Below are positions 50 through 58,067 of a DNA stretch of 64,000 bases, piece after piece (the first letter of the stretch is position 1; each line of letters opens with the position of its first letter). The stretch lies in the IMG/VR virus record IMGVR_UViG_3300048597_000249; one strand, given 5' to 3'. Under the pieces are notes generated by a model. The model was given only the letters and a program-made list of their open reading frames with translations, had not been told where the DNA came from and ran no database searches. The position numbers and the translations under genes were made by a program. This DNA is from an uncultured virus (IMG/VR IMGVR_UViG_3300048597_000249) (lineage: Duplodnaviria; Heunggongvirae; Uroviricota; Caudoviricetes).

Positions 50-123
50 GGACGTATAGCTCAGTTGGTTAGAGTACATCGTTGACATCGATGGGGTCAC
101 TGGTTCGAATCCAGTTACGTCCA
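50..123 (+). tRNA. trnV: tRNA-Val(GAC), no encoded CCA
   Basis: Acceptor stem GGACGTA/TACGTCC-A, D-arm AGCTCAGTTGGTTAGAGT, anticodon arm CATCG-TTGACAT-CGATG, T-loop GGTTCGAATCC. Confidence 0.97.
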
Positions 124-201: not shown

Positions 202-1632
202 CTACCATGTTGCTAGCGGTGCTCTAACCCAGGTATCCTCGGCGACACAGCAATAAAAATAGTCATTATCTAATGCTATTTGACCAACACTACCTTCTGA
301 GTCATTAGTAGGTGGCACAGTAGTTATTTCGGCAAAATTTGGTACACTCGTTAAGTTTGAAAAAGGAATATTGTTATTTTTCCTACCATAAAAAGTTTCC
401 CAACTATCATTTTCTATTTTGCGCAAAATAACATAATCGCCGTTATTCGCCAAAATAAAATCATCAGTAGAATTATTAACAGTAACTCCATCTAGTGGTG
501 TAATACGACAAATATTATCGTTATTTTTTTGAATTGTTATACGATAACCGTCTCTGATTTTTTGTACAGTTTCGGGATAAATAGTATACTGAATATCACC
601 TTCATCATTTTTAGTAAAGAAGTAATTATTATATTGTTCTTTAATTGAAAAAACACTCGACCAGTTAATAATTTCTTTACGTTCGTATAAATGATAAGGA
701 CTTTTATTTTCACTATATCCAATACGACCACCACTAAAGTTTTCGCCAAAATATCCAATAACTTCACTTTGGTCGTAAGAATAATATCGGTCAGTATTAT
801 CGTTAATTGTCCCTTCGATGGAATTAAAATAAATCAGCGCATTTTCGCTGGTGTAAAATATAGCCGATAAATTAGCGTTATTAAAACTGCACCAATTAAT
901 TCGAGCAACAATACTATCCCTTGCTTCAATAAAATATCCTCCTAAATCAGTGGTATCAGGATGCGCCGTAGTAGAACAATCAGAAATATCCGCAACAATT
1001 TCACCGCTTAAATAAAAACAATAACTGTAACCTTGTTTGGGTAAATTAAATTGAATCTCTTCGGCAATTAAATAATTTTGACCATGTGCTCTTACAACAG
1101 TTGTGTAATACCAGTGATTTTCGTCAGTATTATCGTAGTTAATTGTAAAATATTCTATGTTAACAACAGTAGAACTACTACGAATTAAAAAACAATATTC
1201 GTCAGAATTCGGCGTAAATAATAATTCGGCATCTTCATCATTATCATTACCTTGGATAGATAATTCACGACAACGAATCGGCGGAACAACAATATAACCA
1301 CTCGACGGAATTTCAAAAATACCAGTAAAAATAATTCTGACACGAAAACCATTAGCATCGATTGTTTTTAATACAGATAATGCTTTTTCAATCGTAGCAA
1401 AAGGTTCTAGTTCCGAACCATCGTTATTATCATCGCCATTTTCAGCGTGAACATAATAAGTTTTATTTGCGGTCAAAGTAGTTAGACCAGATCCGCTATT
1501 ATTTAATGTTTCTAATTTATTTTTTTCAGTATCGGTAAAAGGATTTGTATTTGGTTCAGATTCATAAAGATTTTTAATTTCTGAGCCAGTAATGTTGTTT
1601 TTAAGACGATATAATTCAGTTAAACTTGGCAT
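202..1632 (-). CDS. Tail fibre / receptor-binding protein
   Basis: TYYV..GDDNNDG..PFATIEKA motif, probable beta-helix region, C-terminal GQIALDNDYFYCCVAEDTWVR motif typical of phage tail proteins. Confidence 0.7.
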   Translation of the reverse strand: MPSLTELYRLKNNITGSEIKNLYESEPNTNPFTDTEKNKLETLNNSGSGLTTLTANKTYYVHAENGDDNNDGSELEPFATIEKALSVLKTIDANGFRVRIIFTGIFEIPSSGYIVVPPIRCRELSIQGNDNDEDAELLFTPNSDEYCFLIRSSSTVVNIEYFTINYDNTDENHWYYTTVVRAHGQNYLIAEEIQFNLPKQGYSYCFYLSGEIVADISDCSTTAHPDTTDLGGYFIEARDSIVARINWCSFNNANLSAIFYTSENALIYFNSIEGTINDNTDRYYSYDQSEVIGYFGENFSGGRIGYSENKSPYHLYERKEIINWSSVFSIKEQYNNYFFTKNDEGDIQYTIYPETVQKIRDGYRITIQKNNDNICRITPLDGVTVNNSTDDFILANNGDYVILRKIENDSWETFYGRKNNNIPFSNLTSVPNFAEITTVPPTNDSEGSVGQIALDNDYFYCCVAEDTWVRAPLATW

Positions 1633-1665
1633 AATTATCGACCAATATTTATTATTAGTTTAACA

Positions 1666-2178
1666 TTAACTATCCCTCACCACATCCACAAAATCACTGG
1701 GCAAACCAAACTCAACAGCCTTGCCTGCCCATTCATCCCGGTGTTCTTGGCTAACCTGTAATGCGCCGCAGAAGTTATTCCAGTAACCTGCGAAACCACT
1801 TTCCGCTAGTCCCTCTTTTGCGACCCTACCGTAGCGTTCAATAATAGCTGGTACTAAGTAAGGATTAACGCTATTTGCCGCCAGCCCATAGGCGACAAAC
1901 GATTGGTTAGTGAATAGCCAAAAGTTGAATCCTGGCCAATTAGGTACAAGTTCCGGCTCGGGTAAATCCACCACACTCCACACTTGTTTGTCCTCAAATG
2001 TATCTAAATCCACCACATATTCACTGGTTAATTGTTGAGTTTCAGCATCATATTCTGGTGGTTCAGTGTCTACCCTAGTCAGTGTCACTAGTGGTGGTTC
2101 CAATCCATCAATTGGCTCGTTATCCAAGCGGGTATAGGGTAAACGTTGATTGGTTTCGGTGTTGTAAAGTAATTTCAT
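1666..2178 (-). CDS. Putative tail fibre accessory protein
   Basis: PPEYDAETQQL motif; located in fibre cluster. Confidence 0.45.
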   Translation of the reverse strand: MKLLYNTETNQRLPYTRLDNEPIDGLEPPLVTLTRVDTEPPEYDAETQQLTSEYVVDLDTFEDKQVWSVVDLPEPELVPNWPGFNFWLFTNQSFVAYGLAANSVNPYLVPAIIERYGRVAKEGLAESGFAGYWNNFCGALQVSQEHRDEWAGKAVEFGLPSDFVDVVRDS

Positions 2179-5882: not shown

Positions 5883-6665
5883 GTGAGTTTTTTAATGTAC
5901 ACAAAACAACCTCGAAAAGAAGTTAAAAATTGCAAAAATGGTCGCAAAAATAATGCGGCTTTTTCTTTTGGTGGTGAAAATGTTGTTGAGTTTAATTATA
6001 AATATTCGTCAATAAAAACTACAGATTTGGTCAAACCACGTACGCCAAATCAAAATAAATTTGTCGCCCATATGCGCAACTATAAATTTACTTTTGGTTT
6101 AGGGATGGCAGGTTGTGGTAAAACTTTGCTTAGTTTGTATGAAGGAGTGCGTTGTATAAATAATCCTGACGTTGCTATTAATAAGATTTATTATATTCGT
6201 GCCAATATTGATGGAGTAGATGAGGAAGTAGAAATTGGTAGTTTGCCGGGAGAATTAGGCGATAAATTAACACCGTTATCTGCGCCGATTTACGATTCTT
6301 GCCGTGAATTTATGACGGATAATGATGCTAAAGCATTGTTTGATTTTGGTAAAATTGAAGTCTTACCCACTGCGTACTTGCGTGGTCGTAGTTTTGCTAA
6401 TGCTTTTGTGATTGTTGACGAGGCGCAAAATTTGACAAAGGGAAAGATTAAGACAGCGTTAACAAGGTTAAGTCATGATTCGAGAATGGTATTTATTGGC
6501 GACCCAGAACAGTGTGATTTGTTGAAAGATCAAAAAGCATTTATCACAGCGGCGAGAATATTGTATGAAGATGAAGATGTGGGTGTTGTAAGATTTGGTA
6601 AGGAAGATTGCTTGCGAGATGATAGTTTGGCAAGGATCGTTGAAAAATTAAATAATAGTTGGTAA
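5883..6665 (+). CDS. phoH: PhoH-family ATPase
   Basis: GMAGCGKT Walker A, GSLPG, YLRGRSF, IVDEAQN, TRL, GDPEQCD. Confidence 0.93.
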   Translation: MSFLMYTKQPRKEVKNCKNGRKNNAAFSFGGENVVEFNYKYSSIKTTDLVKPRTPNQNKFVAHMRNYKFTFGLGMAGCGKTLLSLYEGVRCINNPDVAINKIYYIRANIDGVDEEVEIGSLPGELGDKLTPLSAPIYDSCREFMTDNDAKALFDFGKIEVLPTAYLRGRSFANAFVIVDEAQNLTKGKIKTALTRLSHDSRMVFIGDPEQCDLLKDQKAFITAARILYEDEDVGVVRFGKEDCLRDDSLARIVEKLNNSW

Positions 6666-6668
6666 GGC

Positions 6669-9269
6669 TCAACCGTTTGTTGTTTTTTTATTAATTTCTT
6701 TTGGATGGTAAGATATGTAATCAACATTATTATCATCTAAAGACGACACATAAGATTTTTTATTAGATTGTCTTTTCCATCTTTTAGTCGATATGTCAAA
6801 ATAATATATATCGGCATAATTTACAACTTGTTTGTTGCTTATAATACTCGATTGGGAAAAACTAATATTAGGTACTCCGTTTAACAAATAACCATTAACA
6901 TTTTTAAAGTTATTGTTAACTAATTCTCGGCATAAAATTGTTGTATAATCATTTTTCAAACTGATAAAAGAATGCCCAATAGTATTGTTAATAGAACACA
7001 TAAAAAAATATTCTACTCCTAAATATTTATCAATAGTTATTGATAATGATTCTGGATAAAAATAATCAGGACTTTCTTGAGTTATTGTACTTATAGTTCC
7101 TTCAAATACATCGGCGGAATTATTATTTCTAATGTAGAAAATATTTATTTTTTTATTTGTGTAATCTCTACCTGTATAAATGATAGTGTCGTTATCACTA
7201 GTAACGGTATCAGCTACCCAAGTATCTTGCCATAATTGATTGGGGTCAGTAACTTTCACATAACTTGTACCCGATACATTATGTGTAGTGTAATTATGTA
7301 TATTTCTTCCAGCATCAACATTACCACCAGTCCAATAAAAATCATCATTGGTTATACTAAAAGATCTTACATAGTCTCCAATTTCGATTGGTTGATCGAT
7401 TAACGTATAAAGATTTTTGGTAATTTGAAAATAAAAAAATGGTTCTATTGTTGTTCCAAATAACTCTGTAATCTCATAAACATTACCGTTGTATATGTAT
7501 ACGTTAGCAAATGCGTTGTGGTTTAATAAATAATTAGTAGTTGTTTCACTAGTATATGTTTGAGATTCTTTAACACTATTTATAAGGTAACCATCTGCGG
7601 CTAATACTTCGTATAAATTAATGTTGTAATTCCTAGTTGTGCGAATATCATACCACTCGTAACCATACAAAGAAAAATCTTCGCATAAAAAAATAGGAAT
7701 CGCATAAGAATCTTTTTCTGAAATATCTTCTATTCCAATATATTCTTGTTCGTCGTATGGTTCACCTAAATCTTCCCCAGGATCGCCCATATAAAGATCT
7801 GTGTCGTTAAATGATAAGTTTTGATCTCTTGTTCGATTACCCTTAACACCGTAATGTAAAAATCTATACCATACCGTTCTGTTCAAAGTATAATCAATAA
7901 TTTTAAATCTTTCGTGATATTCTTTGTGGTTAATATGCGCCCATGCTGTACTTGTTTCACTCCAAAAATTTGCAACTTCACTGTCGCCTTCTATTGTAAA
8001 ATGTTGTTTTACTAATCCACCGCTGAGAACCTCTATATTACATTCGCAGTAAAAATTTTGTTTATCTACGGTTTTGGTAGAACTTATTGTAGACGTATCT
8101 ATAATATTTAAATTATTGTCATAAACAGTTCGCCATGGGTTTGCCATAATTTTACCTGAATCACCATCTACAGACGCACTTATTTTATATTCTGGTAAAT
8201 GCCAAGTATTATCGCCGCTACTTATAACCGCAACCCAATTTATGTCGTATATATTTTGACTCAGTATTCTTGGCGAAAAAGATCCGTTAACTCCTGTACA
8301 AGTTATAGATGTTGTGGTAGAAGATGGTGTAGTATTTCCTCCATTTAAACCAGGTGGAAAACCTATAACACTAGGGGGGTATATTAAAATTCTGGTTGAT
8401 CCTGAAAAAATTGGCCCAATAAAATCATTATTTCCAACCCATGTAAAAATAAAAGAACCAGTTGATCCAACATTACCGGCTCGAAAATCGCCACCGCAAA
8501 TATGTCTAAATCTACCTTGTTGTTCTAATATTGTTTTGTAAGCTAAATTATAAACTTCCTCACTTATTAAGTTATTATTGCGCAAATCTAATAAACTAAA
8601 AGAAGCTAACTGTACACCGTCTTCTACGGTATATACAGAACCTTTTGCGTTAAATGTTATATCACCAACATCTGATGCGAATATATTTTTTTCAGACACG
8701 ATGGAAGTACCCGCATAATAAACAGCTTGTACATCATTAGACCAACTCATATTGCTCGTGTTGTTATCACTACTTAATACTTTAATAGTAGGATTATCGT
8801 AATTAAACGATTGATAAAACCCATACCACTTTTTATCTTTATTAACTGCGTACAATAAATAATAATCCCCAATAGTTAAATCTTCATCCTTTTTAAATCC
8901 TCTTATTTTACTCCCTGAAGAAATAATTACAAAATTATAATTTTTTACTATTTCTTTATTTCCACGAGTTTTGCGAAATTGTAATTCGGTTCGTTGAATT
9001 AGTTTACCCCCATTTCTCGGCACTCTTGGGTCATCTTGCGTCTGTTGCCATGCTACATACCGCCGATTCGTCGTGTCATAAAATACCGTAACTTCCCCCG
9101 GTTGTACCACATTGTATGAATACGCTTGTACTCTACCTTGTGGTGTGTTGACGTTAATAGTTGCGCCAATACCAACTTGATTTGCGGTACCTCGTTGAAA
9201 AATAGTAAGAGTACCTTTTCGTATAATTTCCGCCAATTTATTACTTACTTCTTTGTTTGAAAAACTCAT
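6669..9269 (-). CDS. Large hypothetical, probably virion/tail-tip protein
   Basis: 866-aa ORF, beta-rich composition; N-terminus resembles small ORF 20730..20894. Confidence 0.45.
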   Translation of the reverse strand: MSFSNKEVSNKLAEIIRKGTLTIFQRGTANQVGIGATINVNTPQGRVQAYSYNVVQPGEVTVFYDTTNRRYVAWQQTQDDPRVPRNGGKLIQRTELQFRKTRGNKEIVKNYNFVIISSGSKIRGFKKDEDLTIGDYYLLYAVNKDKKWYGFYQSFNYDNPTIKVLSSDNNTSNMSWSNDVQAVYYAGTSIVSEKNIFASDVGDITFNAKGSVYTVEDGVQLASFSLLDLRNNNLISEEVYNLAYKTILEQQGRFRHICGGDFRAGNVGSTGSFIFTWVGNNDFIGPIFSGSTRILIYPPSVIGFPPGLNGGNTTPSSTTTSITCTGVNGSFSPRILSQNIYDINWVAVISSGDNTWHLPEYKISASVDGDSGKIMANPWRTVYDNNLNIIDTSTISSTKTVDKQNFYCECNIEVLSGGLVKQHFTIEGDSEVANFWSETSTAWAHINHKEYHERFKIIDYTLNRTVWYRFLHYGVKGNRTRDQNLSFNDTDLYMGDPGEDLGEPYDEQEYIGIEDISEKDSYAIPIFLCEDFSLYGYEWYDIRTTRNYNINLYEVLAADGYLINSVKESQTYTSETTTNYLLNHNAFANVYIYNGNVYEITELFGTTIEPFFYFQITKNLYTLIDQPIEIGDYVRSFSITNDDFYWTGGNVDAGRNIHNYTTHNVSGTSYVKVTDPNQLWQDTWVADTVTSDNDTIIYTGRDYTNKKINIFYIRNNNSADVFEGTISTITQESPDYFYPESLSITIDKYLGVEYFFMCSINNTIGHSFISLKNDYTTILCRELVNNNFKNVNGYLLNGVPNISFSQSSIISNKQVVNYADIYYFDISTKRWKRQSNKKSYVSSLDDNNVDYISYHPKEINKKTTNG

Positions 9270-9320: not shown

Positions 9321-10679
9321 ATGTTTGATTTTACGCCATTTCATACTGTATCTTCACAACTTGGCGAATACTGTAACTTAGTTAATCAAGATATTATTGC
9401 GCCGAATAAAATACCACTACAAAAATTAATCGATACTTTTGAGTCAGATCCCATTGCCAGTGCTTGTGGTAGTCTCATTTCAAGTCGTGCTACACAATTA
9501 CTTAATCGTCCTTACATTAATAAATCTAACAAAGAAATAGAAGTTTTTGTCCAAAAAAATTTCGACTTAATGGAAGATAATCTGTCGGCATTTATTGCGT
9601 CAATGTCTTCTGCTAAATTGGTCGGTTTTTCAGCGGCGGAAATTAGATTTAAAAAACAACAAAAAAAACTTTGGCTCAAAGGATTCCACGTTCTTAATCC
9701 CACCAAAATCAGCGCTAAAGCTAGTCATGGTCGTTTGACACAGTTTAAATACAATGACTCTGGGATTGAAAAATATGTGCCAATCTGGAAAGTGATTCAT
9801 GTTACAAATGGTACTAATACGTGTTTTGGTACACGATTAATTTATGGTTCGGCGGAAATAATGAAAGCATATGCGCTTATACGTCTCAAACAACTCATCT
9901 GGGCGAATATGGCTGTTACATCGCGTCGTTTGGCAACCGGCATCATTCTTGGTAAAACGGACAGTAACAAAAGCACATTGCTCCTAGATCCCAAAACTGG
10001 TAAACCACGTATTGATACCAATACTGGCAAAGAAATGGAGGTTAAAGCGTCATTTCAATTGGCGCAACAATTAAAAACAGTTGAAAATTTCGGCGTAATC
10101 GTCACTGATAGTAATAACGATGTGGGTACGTTGAATATCAATGGCGGCGAACAATTTTGGAATTTGGCGATAAATTTAATTGACCAACAAATCATGCGTT
10201 GTTTCCAAGTGCCGGATACTGTTTTTTCAGCACCCACAAATCCATTTGGTAACGGTTTGGTATCAAGCAATCAACTGTCGTTGTTGGATGCGAATATTAT
10301 GACTTTCGCAATTCGACTCAAAGATCAGTTGCTTGAAAAAGTGGTGCGCCCATTAATTTATCTCAATTTTGGCAAAGGTAGTACAGACACACTTGGCGAT
10401 TGGGATATACACGACGAAATTAATGAGCAGAAGAATCAGCAGATATTGGGTAATTTAATACAAGCAATGGGTATGGGAGTGTTGAACAGTCAGGATTATG
10501 ATGCGGTTAATGCGTTGAGGGAGAAGTTAGACTTGCCGAAAATCAATGTTGAGACAGTGGCACAACAGAAGGAATTGGAAGCTAAATTGCAAGCGTTACA
10601 ACAGAAAGTAGCAATGGCTGGACAACAAGAACAAGCACCGACGCAAGTACCACCTGAAGAACAACAAGAGTATATTTGA
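9321..10679 (+). CDS. Portal protein (Mu gp29/DUF935-like)
   Basis: 452 aa; GFSAAEI, IDQQIMR and LLEKVVRPLIYLNFG motifs characteristic of DUF935-type portals. Confidence 0.8.
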   Translation: MFDFTPFHTVSSQLGEYCNLVNQDIIAPNKIPLQKLIDTFESDPIASACGSLISSRATQLLNRPYINKSNKEIEVFVQKNFDLMEDNLSAFIASMSSAKLVGFSAAEIRFKKQQKKLWLKGFHVLNPTKISAKASHGRLTQFKYNDSGIEKYVPIWKVIHVTNGTNTCFGTRLIYGSAEIMKAYALIRLKQLIWANMAVTSRRLATGIILGKTDSNKSTLLLDPKTGKPRIDTNTGKEMEVKASFQLAQQLKTVENFGVIVTDSNNDVGTLNINGGEQFWNLAINLIDQQIMRCFQVPDTVFSAPTNPFGNGLVSSNQLSLLDANIMTFAIRLKDQLLEKVVRPLIYLNFGKGSTDTLGDWDIHDEINEQKNQQILGNLIQAMGMGVLNSQDYDAVNALREKLDLPKINVETVAQQKELEAKLQALQQKVAMAGQQEQAPTQVPPEEQQEYI

Positions 10680-10692
10680 TGAATATTTATAT

Positions 10693-10925
10693 GGAATTAG
10701 ATTTAGTTCCAATTATAATTCCACTTCCAATTCCACCCTATAACCCATATACAGTAAGCATCGTAAACGTTTGGAACTGAAGGAACTAGAATATTCAATA
10801 TAAAAAAAAATAATGTTGTGAATAAATTTTTTGTTAAAATACGGTTCCATAGTTCCAAAAACCACGAAACCGTTATTTTACAAGTGTTTTAAAGTGGAAC
10901 TAGATTTTATTTCGGTTCCGAACTT
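10693..10925. repeat. Iteron-like GGAACT/AGTTCC repeat cluster, putative replication origin
   Basis: About ten GGAAYT/RxTTCC hexamers in both orientations around AT-rich tracts, immediately downstream of the VirE gene. Confidence 0.6.
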
Positions 10926-12670: not shown

Positions 12671-13474
12671 ATGGCAAAACGCAAACCCACTTTAAGATTT
12701 GACAATAAAAAAAATAATACGCCGTATTTTAAAACTCACATTAAAGAACTAAATCAACGTCTTGTTTGGTGGGGTGAACTTGATGAACAATATAATAACG
12801 ACCTTTTTTCAACCCACACTCTGGATGCAGTTCTCTCTTTTCAATTGAAAAAACAATTAGTAGAAGATGGTGTTGTTGGCGCAAAAACTTGGAATGCTCT
12901 ATTGACGGAGTCAATCACTCTGTCCGTCGAACCTCTTAACGACGTTGAAAAAGTAGAGATTATTACTCAATGTGGCGAAAATGGTTGTTATATCGAACCA
13001 CAAAAACATGAAGATTTAACTGCTGGTATTGCGTTGTTGAAACAATGGGAAGGATTACGTTTAGCGGCGTATCCCGATTCTGGCACAGGTGATAAACCAA
13101 TCACAATTGGATATGGTTCGACGATTGATATTGACGGCAAACCTTTTCAATTGGGACGTAAGATTACGAAAGATTATGCCGAAGATTTACTACGCATTGA
13201 AATCGCCGAAAAATACCTCCCACAACTGCGCAAAATACCTTACTGGCATGAAATGAATTCTAATCAACAAGGAGCGTTATTAAGTTTTGCGTGGAATCTT
13301 GGTGCGTATTTTTACGGCGCAGATGGATTTGAAACTATTACGAGGGTATTGCGTAGCAAAGAATGGAGTATGGTTCCAAAAGCGCTAATGTTGTATGTCA
13401 ATCCTGGTAGTAGTGTTGAAAAAGGATTGCGTAATCGTCGTCAAGCGGAAGGACAACTATGGTCAAAACGCTAA
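12671..13474 (+). CDS. Endolysin: peptidoglycan-binding domain plus GH24 lysozyme
   Basis: FQ..L.EDGVVGAKTW binding motif; WEGLRLAAYPD..TIGYGST; GLRNRRQAEGQLW. Confidence 0.92.
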   Translation: MAKRKPTLRFDNKKNNTPYFKTHIKELNQRLVWWGELDEQYNNDLFSTHTLDAVLSFQLKKQLVEDGVVGAKTWNALLTESITLSVEPLNDVEKVEIITQCGENGCYIEPQKHEDLTAGIALLKQWEGLRLAAYPDSGTGDKPITIGYGSTIDIDGKPFQLGRKITKDYAEDLLRIEIAEKYLPQLRKIPYWHEMNSNQQGALLSFAWNLGAYFYGADGFETITRVLRSKEWSMVPKALMLYVNPGSSVEKGLRNRRQAEGQLWSKR

Positions 13475-37594: not shown

Positions 37595-38251
37595 TTAGTA
37601 GTACCATCTTATCCTACCTGGACGAGAATCAAAATGGGTAAAACCCTTACGACGAGCGCCATATCCTAATGCTTTATTACCCCATTTAGAATCAACCCAT
37701 TTTTCAAACTCGATAACTTTACCATTCGCTGGTCTAATATCAACCGCTTTACCCAGTATATGTTGGCTATTCCAAACACCACCAACAGCACGATTAACAT
37801 GTGGCGGACGATACCAGCTAGTAACTAATAATCCACTACCCCATTGTTCACGAATTGGATCTAATAATTTTGCCAAAGTAACAATATTATTACGATGCGA
37901 CACATTCGTTGCTAAACGTTCTCGATATTGAACATAGCGACCATCATTAGTAAGTCCTTGTGCAGATTCTCCGACAGTAAAATAGGTACTAATTTTGCTA
38001 TTGAAGTCGTTCCAATCAATACCTTGTATTTCTCTATATTTTTCAACCAAAAGATTATAACTACTTTCGCCGATTAAAGTTGTTTCACTTAACCAATTAT
38101 CTGTTTTAAATTCTGACCATGCGTATGCTGTATTTTTACCGAAAATACCATCAATTATTTCGTGATAATAATCTAATTTTTTTAATTTAGTTTGTATTGA
38201 TATTAATTCTGCTTTTGTTAGACTTTTAACTTCTTTTGTTTCGGTAATCAT
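37595..38251 (-). CDS. Peptidoglycan-binding domain plus M15-family Zn peptidase
   Basis: IDGIFGKNT; TSWYRPPHVNRAVGG..SQH..GKAVD..FTHFD. Confidence 0.88.
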   Translation of the reverse strand: MITETKEVKSLTKAELISIQTKLKKLDYYHEIIDGIFGKNTAYAWSEFKTDNWLSETTLIGESSYNLLVEKYREIQGIDWNDFNSKISTYFTVGESAQGLTNDGRYVQYRERLATNVSHRNNIVTLAKLLDPIREQWGSGLLVTSWYRPPHVNRAVGGVWNSQHILGKAVDIRPANGKVIEFEKWVDSKWGNKALGYGARRKGFTHFDSRPGRIRWYY

Positions 38252-57938: not shown

Positions 57939-58034
57939 AAAAAAATAGTAGTCCCGATTACCGGGATTAAATGATAAATGGCTTACACCACTAAATTCAG
58001 ACTTATTTGTTTCAGTCCCGACTATCGGTATTTT
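57939..58034 (-). CRISPR. Degenerate mini-array / crRNA-like RNA (type I-D-like repeat, about 27-nt spacer, truncated repeat)
   Basis: ATACCGATAGTCGGGACTGAAAC - spacer - TAATCCCGGTAATCGGGACT plus T7; resembles the recalled Synechocystis 6803 I-D repeat end TAATCCCGGCGATCGGGACTGAAAC. Confidence 0.72.
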
Positions 58035-58038
58035 GATT

Positions 58039-58067
58039 ACTATAACACAACAACAACCAATTTACAA
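58039..58067 (-). promoter_or_regulatory. Sigma70-type promoter of the crRNA-like RNA
   Basis: TTGTAA-17 nt-TATAGT with extended TG. Confidence 0.7.

Follow-up and report, generated by a model that had tools for sequence, protein, structure and literature searches.

A stand-alone unit of roughly 100 bases, as read from the sequence, lies on the minus strand at positions 58067-57939 in the DNA of an uncultured virus (IMG/VR record IMGVR_UViG_3300048597_000249). The window, that is, the whole stretch of DNA that was analysed, is 64,000 nucleotides long. The unit is almost certainly real and homologous to the regulatory mini-arrays of host type I-D CRISPR loci, judging from sequence comparison. 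It is probably a viral crRNA-like regulator, a mimic of the Cracr or CreR-CreA kind, that would load the host type I-D Cascade and silence the cas3'-cas10d promoter. RNAs of this kind are already known from the accessible parts of three studies, as Racr (PMC10651486), as viral mini-arrays (Shmakov et al., bioRxiv 10.1101/2023.03.03.530964) and as Cracr (Liu et al., bioRxiv 10.1101/2024.10.29.618823), and the present unit is the first case found for type I-D and for cyanophages.

The virus

Comparison with PHROGs and Pfam identified TerL, a major head protein, a tape measure protein and tail fibres in the window, together with a Mu-like portal, a PhoH-like protein, a lysozyme and a VapE-like helicase. 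The window thus comes from a tailed phage, and a novel one; no close relatives were found in INPHARED by megablast, and no relatives in IMG/VR via TerL or the 111-aa neighbour of the unit. The phage is plausibly a cyanophage; its major head protein shares ~30% identity with the counterparts in two Pseudanabaena phages. Its G+C content is 30-37%. Of the 73 ORFs of at least 100 aa, 51 were scanned with PADLOC; none matched a Cas model, and for these 51 ORFs the original prediction of a window without cas genes holds.

A tRNA-Val (GAC) gene at the start of the window may be carried by the phage or signal an attachment site. Two separate wall hydrolases, a lysozyme and an M15 peptidase, each carry a PG_binding_1 domain.

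Architecture of the viral unit

The original prediction had described a promoter, two repeats, a guide and a T7 run on the minus strand, and all of these elements are present there base for base (Table 1). The two promoter-like hexamers are separated by 17 nt, which would imply a transcription start at about 58033-58031, 3-5 nt 5' of the R1 hairpin. The region is AT-rich and holds 28 promoter-like sites where 25.2 are expected, so that the promoter match is at background level. Terminator-like sites in the region number three against 1.3 expected, and in the unit the bases ACTA stand between PsiR2 and the T7 run.

Table 1. Coordinates of the unit and of other features of the window
Feature	Position	Strand	Remark
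-35-like hexamer TTGTAA	58062..58067	-	Consensus match only
-10-like hexamer TATAGT with TG in front (extended -10)	58039..58044	-	Consensus match
PsiR1 (R1), degenerate repeat AATACCGATAGTCGGGACTGAAAC	58009..58032	-	3' end GGGACTGAAAC
PsiS, 28-nt guide AAATAAGTCTGAATTTAGTGGTGTAAGC	57981..58008	-	Family of cyanobacterial I-D mini-array guides
Linker, 12 nt, CATTTATCATTT	57969..57980	-	Between PsiS and PsiR2
PsiR2 (R2) AATCCCGGTAATCGGGACT	57950..57968	-	5-bp hairpin, -7.3 kcal/mol, good; ends short of GAAAC
T7 run	57939..57945	-	With the PsiR2 hairpin (57966-57952), terminator-like site
Downstream ORF, 111 aa	57588..57923	-	No family match
Upstream ORF, 109 aa	58225..58554	-	Atlas: confident fold, phage-rich clusters, no named family
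tRNA-Val (GAC) gene	50..123	+
PhoH-like gene, listed with hydrolases	5883..6665, 12671..13474, 37595..38251	+, +, -

The two repeats preserve different parts of the hairpin and 8-nt handle (ACUGAAAC). In R1 the handle is exact and the hairpin is weak; in R2 the hairpin is good and the handle is truncated. The PsiR1 hairpin contains an A.G mismatch and has a folding energy of -3.8 kcal/mol, which 42 of 200 shuffled sequences equal, and because of this weakness Cas6 cleavage at PsiR1 is uncertain. The TACC...GGGA variant of PsiR1 recurs in the two repeats of a host unit (L090). Counted with one more 5' base (57969-57950), R2 reads TAATCCCGGTAATCGGGACT and lacks GAAAC. It ends after CGGGACU, a truncation that is identical in the host unit of Picosynechococcus sp. 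PCC 7117. The guide, of 27 or 28 nt, is AAATAAGTCTGAATTTAGTGGTGTAAG(C) at 58008-57982/57981. From handle to second hairpin the distance is 40 nt, the minimum of the family, compared with 42 nt in PCC 7117 and 45-54 nt in the other hosts.

The unit occupies a 186-nt intergenic gap between two small co-directional ORFs. Neither neighbouring ORF matched a Pfam, PHROGs or PADLOC family, Atlas look-ups were uninformative, and no Acr- or Aca-like neighbour was recognised.

Separation of the unit from chance matches

The string TCGGGACT occurs only twice in the whole window on both strands, and both copies lie in the unit, on the same strand and 64 nt apart. A covariance model was built from 11 host units alone, with the phage unit left out. 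Searched with this model, the window gave the phage unit as its sole significant match, at 50.5 bits and an E value of about 1.8e-10 from a rough calibration, and the second-best place in the window scored 13.8 bits. The alignment spans the full length of the model and places an 11-nt deletion in the phage unit. In the model, RNAalifold paired PsiR1 with PsiR2 instead of forming two local hairpins, so that its structural term is no test of the two hairpins. The host guides match the site of the unit at 23-24 of 28 bases and match elsewhere in the window at no more than 18-20 of 28.

The Rfam family RF01365 (CRISPR-DR52) aligns to R2 with 18.3 bits and an E value of 1.9, and the truncation of R2 leaves this below the gathering score of 50. 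R1 was not reported, and neither copy reaches the gathering score. This weak Rfam match, and the terminator-like appearance of R2 with its T-run, would suit another small RNA, or a terminator hairpin with a chance likeness to a repeat. Such an origin is extremely improbable, since it is contradicted by the 50.5 bits of the covariance model against 13.8 for the next best place, and by a guide that agrees at 23-24 of 28 positions in register with the handle.

Repeat class and assignment to type I-D

The Synechocystis 6803 I-D repeat given in the original prediction is the exact consensus of RF01365, the family of the Synechocystis CRISPR1 repeat. R2 corresponds to consensus positions 13-33 save two loop bases and R1 retains UCGGGACUGAAAC; the two differ from the family in that the unit does not preserve the 5' third of the repeat and GAAAC is missing from R2. 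In the part of the source available, Synechocystis Cas6-1 is described as cleaving the I-D repeat at a point 8 nt before the 3' end (PMC5741207). The 5' handle proposed for Cas6 in the original prediction agrees with this cleavage site, R1 carrying exactly ACUGAAAC.

With one genome taken per species, the pattern ATNCCGNNNNTCGGGACTGAAAC was found at 63 loci. Forty-four are in cyanobacterial records, of Synechocystis, Snowella, Phormidesmis, Leptolyngbyaceae and others, and every array is among them; the remaining 19 are single matches from other phyla, roughly as many as chance would give. In arrays of this repeat class the spacers measure 32-45 nt (n=441), and none of the 441 spacers matches the phage, the best agreement being 18/19 bases.

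Linkage to cas10d connects the repeat class with type I-D. Cas10d lies a few kb from arrays of the class in two of five genomes tested (G001 and G002, both Synechocystis-type), and the arrays nearest to R2 (CTTTCCTTCAACTAATCCCGGCGATCGGGACTGAAAC) are those linked to Cas10d. A hairpin with the ACUGAAAC handle marks the repeat class of the arrays that adjoin cas10d in a Synechocystis MAG, and Picosynechococcus sp. PCC 7117 has a PGAP-annotated I-D locus with a repeat of the same class, CTTTCCAACCACTAAATCCCGATCACGGGACTGAAAC. These links bear out the I-D-like assignment of the original prediction. By itself the handle is no specific mark of I-D, as three of the five genomes with arrays ending in ACTGAAAC gave no Cas10d match. 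In G003-G005 (loci L028, L021 and L054), arrays end in CGGGACTGAAAC and repeats begin with CGCGCC or CTCGCC. These genomes have no Cas10d match, so that either another CRISPR subtype has the handle too or these genome sequences have gaps.

The phage repeats are of the CCCG...CGGGACUGAAA type, common to the PCC 7117 unit and a unit from Leptolyngbyaceae (L057). A composite of the R2 hairpin and GAAAC had no match in genome contigs. Two metagenome-contig matches to the R2 20-mer were rejected as chance, both being inside coding sequence. The alignment with host repeats that had been proposed as a check thus recovered the class, but no array with the exact phage hairpin in genomes or metagenomes.

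Two other viral contigs carry repeats that may be mentioned here. On IMGVR_UViG_3300035670_000130 (L001), a 7-repeat array of the same class (GATCAAAAGGGTAATCCCGGTGATCGGGACTGAAAC) lies at 1501-1950 (-), with one spacer of 14 nt. On IMGVR_UViG_3300029288_000290 (L002), a solitary intergenic repeat, ATCCCGACTGTCGGGACTGAAAC, lies at 1498-1520 (+) with no second repeat, and is a Racr-like candidate for this class.

Homologous guides in host mini-arrays

Nineteen I-D loci were fetched from those 18, out of 89 Synechocystis-family genomes, that contain Cas10d, and repeat-like units outside arrays were listed. Two of these units, L081 and L082, are homologous to the phage in their guides. The L081 unit runs ...GTCCCTATGAGGGATTGAAAC and then AAATAAGTCTGAACTTATGTGTGGAAGC; its guide is identical to the phage guide over the first 13 bases and agrees with it at 23 of 28 overall, in register with the handle. 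The L082 guide shares 11 seed bases and likewise 23 of 28 overall. The loci of G001 and G002, whose array repeats are nearest to R2, contain no such mini-array in the stretches examined.

Of 401 genomes of the order, 10 then matched a degenerate guide pattern and one matched the reversed control. Nine of the ten are genuine units, in which the guide is immediately preceded on its 5' side by a repeat hairpin with handle and a second repeat follows about 50 nt later. The handle-plus-guide pattern gave matches in 9 of 401 genomes of the phylum against none for the control, of which seven were judged real and two chance. Candidates L091 and L105 were rejected as chance matches since they have no hairpin, and L111 was judged a chance match from the matched string only. 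A BLAST search of plasmids identified the same unit on a plasmid of Picosynechococcus sp. PCC 7117 (E 4e-5).

Altogether, the phage guide agrees at 22-24 of 28 positions with the guides of 11 host units, and at 19 of 28 with that of a twelfth (L057), which has a differing seed. In the AAATA-type units (L089, L092-L095, L098 and L101), guide positions 1-5 and 7-9 or more equal those of the phage. The handle in most host units found is AUUGAAAC, with ACUGAAA only in PCC 7117 and L057. Several of the differences between the phage and the host consensus are C-to-T. Among viruses, one guide-family pattern gave two chance matches without a hairpin in IMG/VR and a second pattern gave none, and BLAST of the whole unit against INPHARED gave 20-nt chance matches only.

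Other stand-alone repeat units with different guides are also present in I-D loci, at L072(-)6865, L074(-)10298, L084(+)15842 and L085(-)16255. The L084 and L085 guides have a common seed (TGATATATTTT and TGATGTATTTT). These four units indicate that several mini-array families exist in I-D.

Layout of the host loci

In type I-D loci, the host units are situated between cas3' and cas10d and run antisense to both. In nine of ten loci tested, Cas3' (TIGR03158, above cut-off) ends ~70 nt from the unit. The tenth is the RefSeq-annotated I-D locus of PCC 7117, in which the annotation gives a WYL regulator, cas3', cas10d, cas7d, cas5d, cas6, cas4, cas1d and cas2, and the array repeats end in ACTGAAAC.

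Upstream of the unit, between the mini-array and cas10d, is a conserved gene of ~65 aa (61-79 aa) that reads away from it. Examples are at 6641-6829 (-) of the L101 locus (NZ_CP016482.1) and 10491-10676 (-) of L081, and other loci have homologues. The consensus of the protein is ..KKTKV.LLIEVLSDG.WH..DELA.KV..RFGDA..KAR..GY.I.T..VG..H.YRL. It matched no Pfam or NCBIfam family, and a hint of a winged helix is weak. The gene is absent from the RefSeq annotation of PCC 7117, and no homologue is encoded in the window. Variable cargo follows the gene, namely MNT-HepT, DUF433 with a PIN-like protein, or a YhcG nuclease, and then cas10d.

The same layout was described by Shmakov et al. (bioRxiv 10.1101/2023.03.03.530964), who, in the portion of the preprint available, predicted computationally that I-D mini-arrays of hosts regulate cas10d or toxin-antitoxin (TA) cargo. 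As in that account, the host homologues found here are placed between cas3' and cas10d and have partial, PAM-flanked promoter targets and TA or regulator cargo. The phage copy differs from these in being shorter and in having no cas genes, cargo or upstream target. In two supplementary files of that study, the present guide family had no match.

Targets of the guide

The I-D PAM is given as GTN or GTH in the accessible part of the source (PMC10212523). A target was defined as a GTN PAM with at least 8 of 10 seed bases (positions 1-11 without 6), at most 305 nt upstream of the unit. By this definition, 11 of 12 host loci contain targets of their own guide, often one per strand. The control strand-windows of these loci, 364 in number, include one at 8/10 and none at 9/10. 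The phage guide reaches at least 9/10 on the targets of 8 of the 12 hosts, about equal to the host guides. The proposed comparison of the spacer with cas promoters carrying a GTN PAM thus yielded partial targets in 11 of 12 loci of stand-in hosts. The PAM-flanked sites in putative cas or toxin promoters are thus those of stand-in hosts.

The target that faces the cas genes is directly followed by a TTGACA or TTGCAA -35 box, with a TAnnnT box ~17 nt on, and the targets are located upstream of the ~65-aa gene. These boxes would form a promoter towards cas10d, and Cascade bound at the target would cover it. Pairing between guide and target ends after ~10-18 bases; in CreA/CreR-type regulators, as in the I-D host units, pairing is partial and confined to the seed. 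The CreA/CreR-like hijacking guide of the original prediction gains support from these observations, the guide being homologous to host regulatory guides and matching GTN-flanked promoter targets.

In L081, the cas-facing target at 10761-10783 (reverse complement) equals the locus's own guide without the base at position 6, and the corresponding target of L082 lacks the bases at guide positions 6 and 18. Guide positions such as 6 and 18 are flipped out by type I Cascade.

No PAM-plus-seed site of at least 9/10 is present before the phage unit or elsewhere in the window, and hence the phage unit, unlike the host units, would escape autorepression. This absence also bears on the idea that the unit is a captured fragment of host DNA, functionless in the phage or decaying. 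Its clear homology to a host element would be expected of such a fragment, PsiR1 is degenerate, the C-to-T differences are in line with the G+C content of the phage, and no second phage copy was found in IMG/VR or INPHARED. However, only the ~100-nt unit is common to phage and hosts, and not the host flanks or upstream targets; seed, handle and PsiR2 hairpin are all preserved; and the unit is intergenic, co-oriented with its neighbours and bounded by promoter-like and terminator-like ends. A captured fragment is therefore considered unlikely.

A virus-borne mini-CRISPR array directed at competing phages, for superinfection exclusion, would resemble the unit in having two repeats around one spacer, as described in the available parts of PMC6858448 and PMC11656645. 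No protospacer was found in INPHARED (best matches E 7), in IMG/VR with positions 6, 12, 18 and 24 left free, or in the 89 family genomes at up to 3 mismatches, and within the window the best match to the guide is 19/27. The search of other phages proposed for the spacer thus came back empty from INPHARED and IMG/VR, and the same searches lend no support to a competing element as the target, an option raised in the original prediction. The guide matches host regulatory guides and host promoter sites instead, and an interviral role is very improbable.

Proposed mechanism

The anatomy of the unit, its homology to host units and the host targets with their PAMs are direct observations, and they suggest a path from transcription through processing, loading and repression to a benefit for the phage. 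The phage would transcribe ~95 nt, either from the unit's own promoter or by read-through from the co-directional upstream genes. Host Cas6 would cleave PsiR1, leaving the ACUGAAAC handle, and would also bind the PsiR2 hairpin. Cas5d, Cas7d and Cas10d of the host would assemble on the shortened guide, and the complex would read the GTN PAM and pair over the first 10-18 bases only. Its target would be the conserved site next to the -35 box of the cas3'-cas10d promoter, where limited pairing would give binding without cleavage. Repression would extend to the small winged-helix-like gene, any TA cargo and probably the cas10d operon. The RNA of the phage may also vie with the crRNAs of the host for Cas proteins, and their sequestration is possible as an added effect.

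The shortened spacing (40 versus 42-54 nt) and the truncated PsiR2 fit the viral versions that have been reported. Shorter viral guides are described for I-B and I-F in the accessible parts of two preprints (bioRxiv 10.1101/2023.03.03.530964; bioRxiv 10.1101/2024.10.29.618823), and, as far as the second (Liu et al.) is available, they give complexes with fewer Cas7 subunits.

More tentatively, the unit may be a broad-range off-switch for I-D. The guide-target pair is conserved across many cyanobacterial lineages, and so one phage RNA of ~95 nt could reprogram the Cascade of many hosts, silencing the cas10d operon and the TA 'guards' on the same promoter. As the guide is 8-11 nt shorter, Cascade would contain one or two fewer Cas7d and would bind with no licence to cleave. 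This would make the unit the first anti-CRISPR for bacterial I-D and the first RNA one in a cyanophage.

Relation to known systems

The closest likeness is to the Cracr of Liu et al. (bioRxiv 10.1101/2024.10.29.618823), as far as the text is available. The present unit shares with Cracr the location on a phage outside any cas locus and the PsiR-PsiS-PsiR layout. Liu et al. ask for at least 9 PAM-proximal bases identical to a host guide, and here 13 are shared with L081 and 11 with L082. In both cases the spacer region is shorter than that of the host, and the predicted target is a cas or toxin promoter. Their 219 candidates are directed against V-A, I-F, I-E, I-C and I-B and come from Pseudomonadota, Bacillota and Actinomycetota; the accessible text contains no mention of I-D or 'cyano'. 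The present unit differs in having no recognisable acr gene adjoining it and in a function that is predicted from sequence.

CreTA/CreA systems, in the parts of the sources available, have an arrangement like that of the hosts, with a mini-array divergent from its target gene, seed-only pairing and TA cargo. They differ in the cargo, which in I-D consists of protein TA systems (MNT-HepT; DUF433 with a PIN-like protein) and a small conserved protein and not of a small RNA toxin, and regulation in I-D is predicted.

Racr (PMC10651486) is likewise a phage-encoded repeat mimic with its own promoter, which in the present unit is putative, and both would compete for Cas6 and Cas7. If the unit were only a decoy of this type, the RNA would soak up Cas6 and Cas7d in aberrant complexes and the guide sequence would be irrelevant. 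It does imitate repeats and lies away from cas genes, as do the solitary repeat units of that study, supplementary file 3 of which, in its accessible part, lists I-D solitary repeats on IMG/VR viruses, and competition for Cas proteins would happen anyway. In contrast to Racr, whose solitary repeats have flanks that are not guides, the present unit has two repeats, 64 nt apart, enclosing a guide that has an intact seed and 22-24 of 28 bases in common with a conserved host regulatory guide. Racr candidates are defined there as repeats without other associated partial repeats. A decoy role alone is accordingly improbable, and a crRNA-like regulator of the cas3'-cas10d promoter is the preferred reading.

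As for novelty, in 2023 the sole known I-D inhibitor was the protein AcrID1 of an archaeal virus, according to the portion of the source available (PMC10212523). No cyanophage or I-D example of an RNA like the present one was found in the literature, and the supplementary tables of the bioRxiv preprints might hold one.

Implications

Type I-D is the commonest type I system in cyanobacteria and serves as a genome-editing tool. If the proposed function is true, the unit would carry the viral crlRNA strategy into another subtype, another phylum and the cyanophages, and would provide a compact, programmable off-switch for I-D. The host loci, for their part, point to a widely conserved I-D autoregulatory circuit made up of the mini-array, the ~65-aa gene, TA cargo and cas10d.
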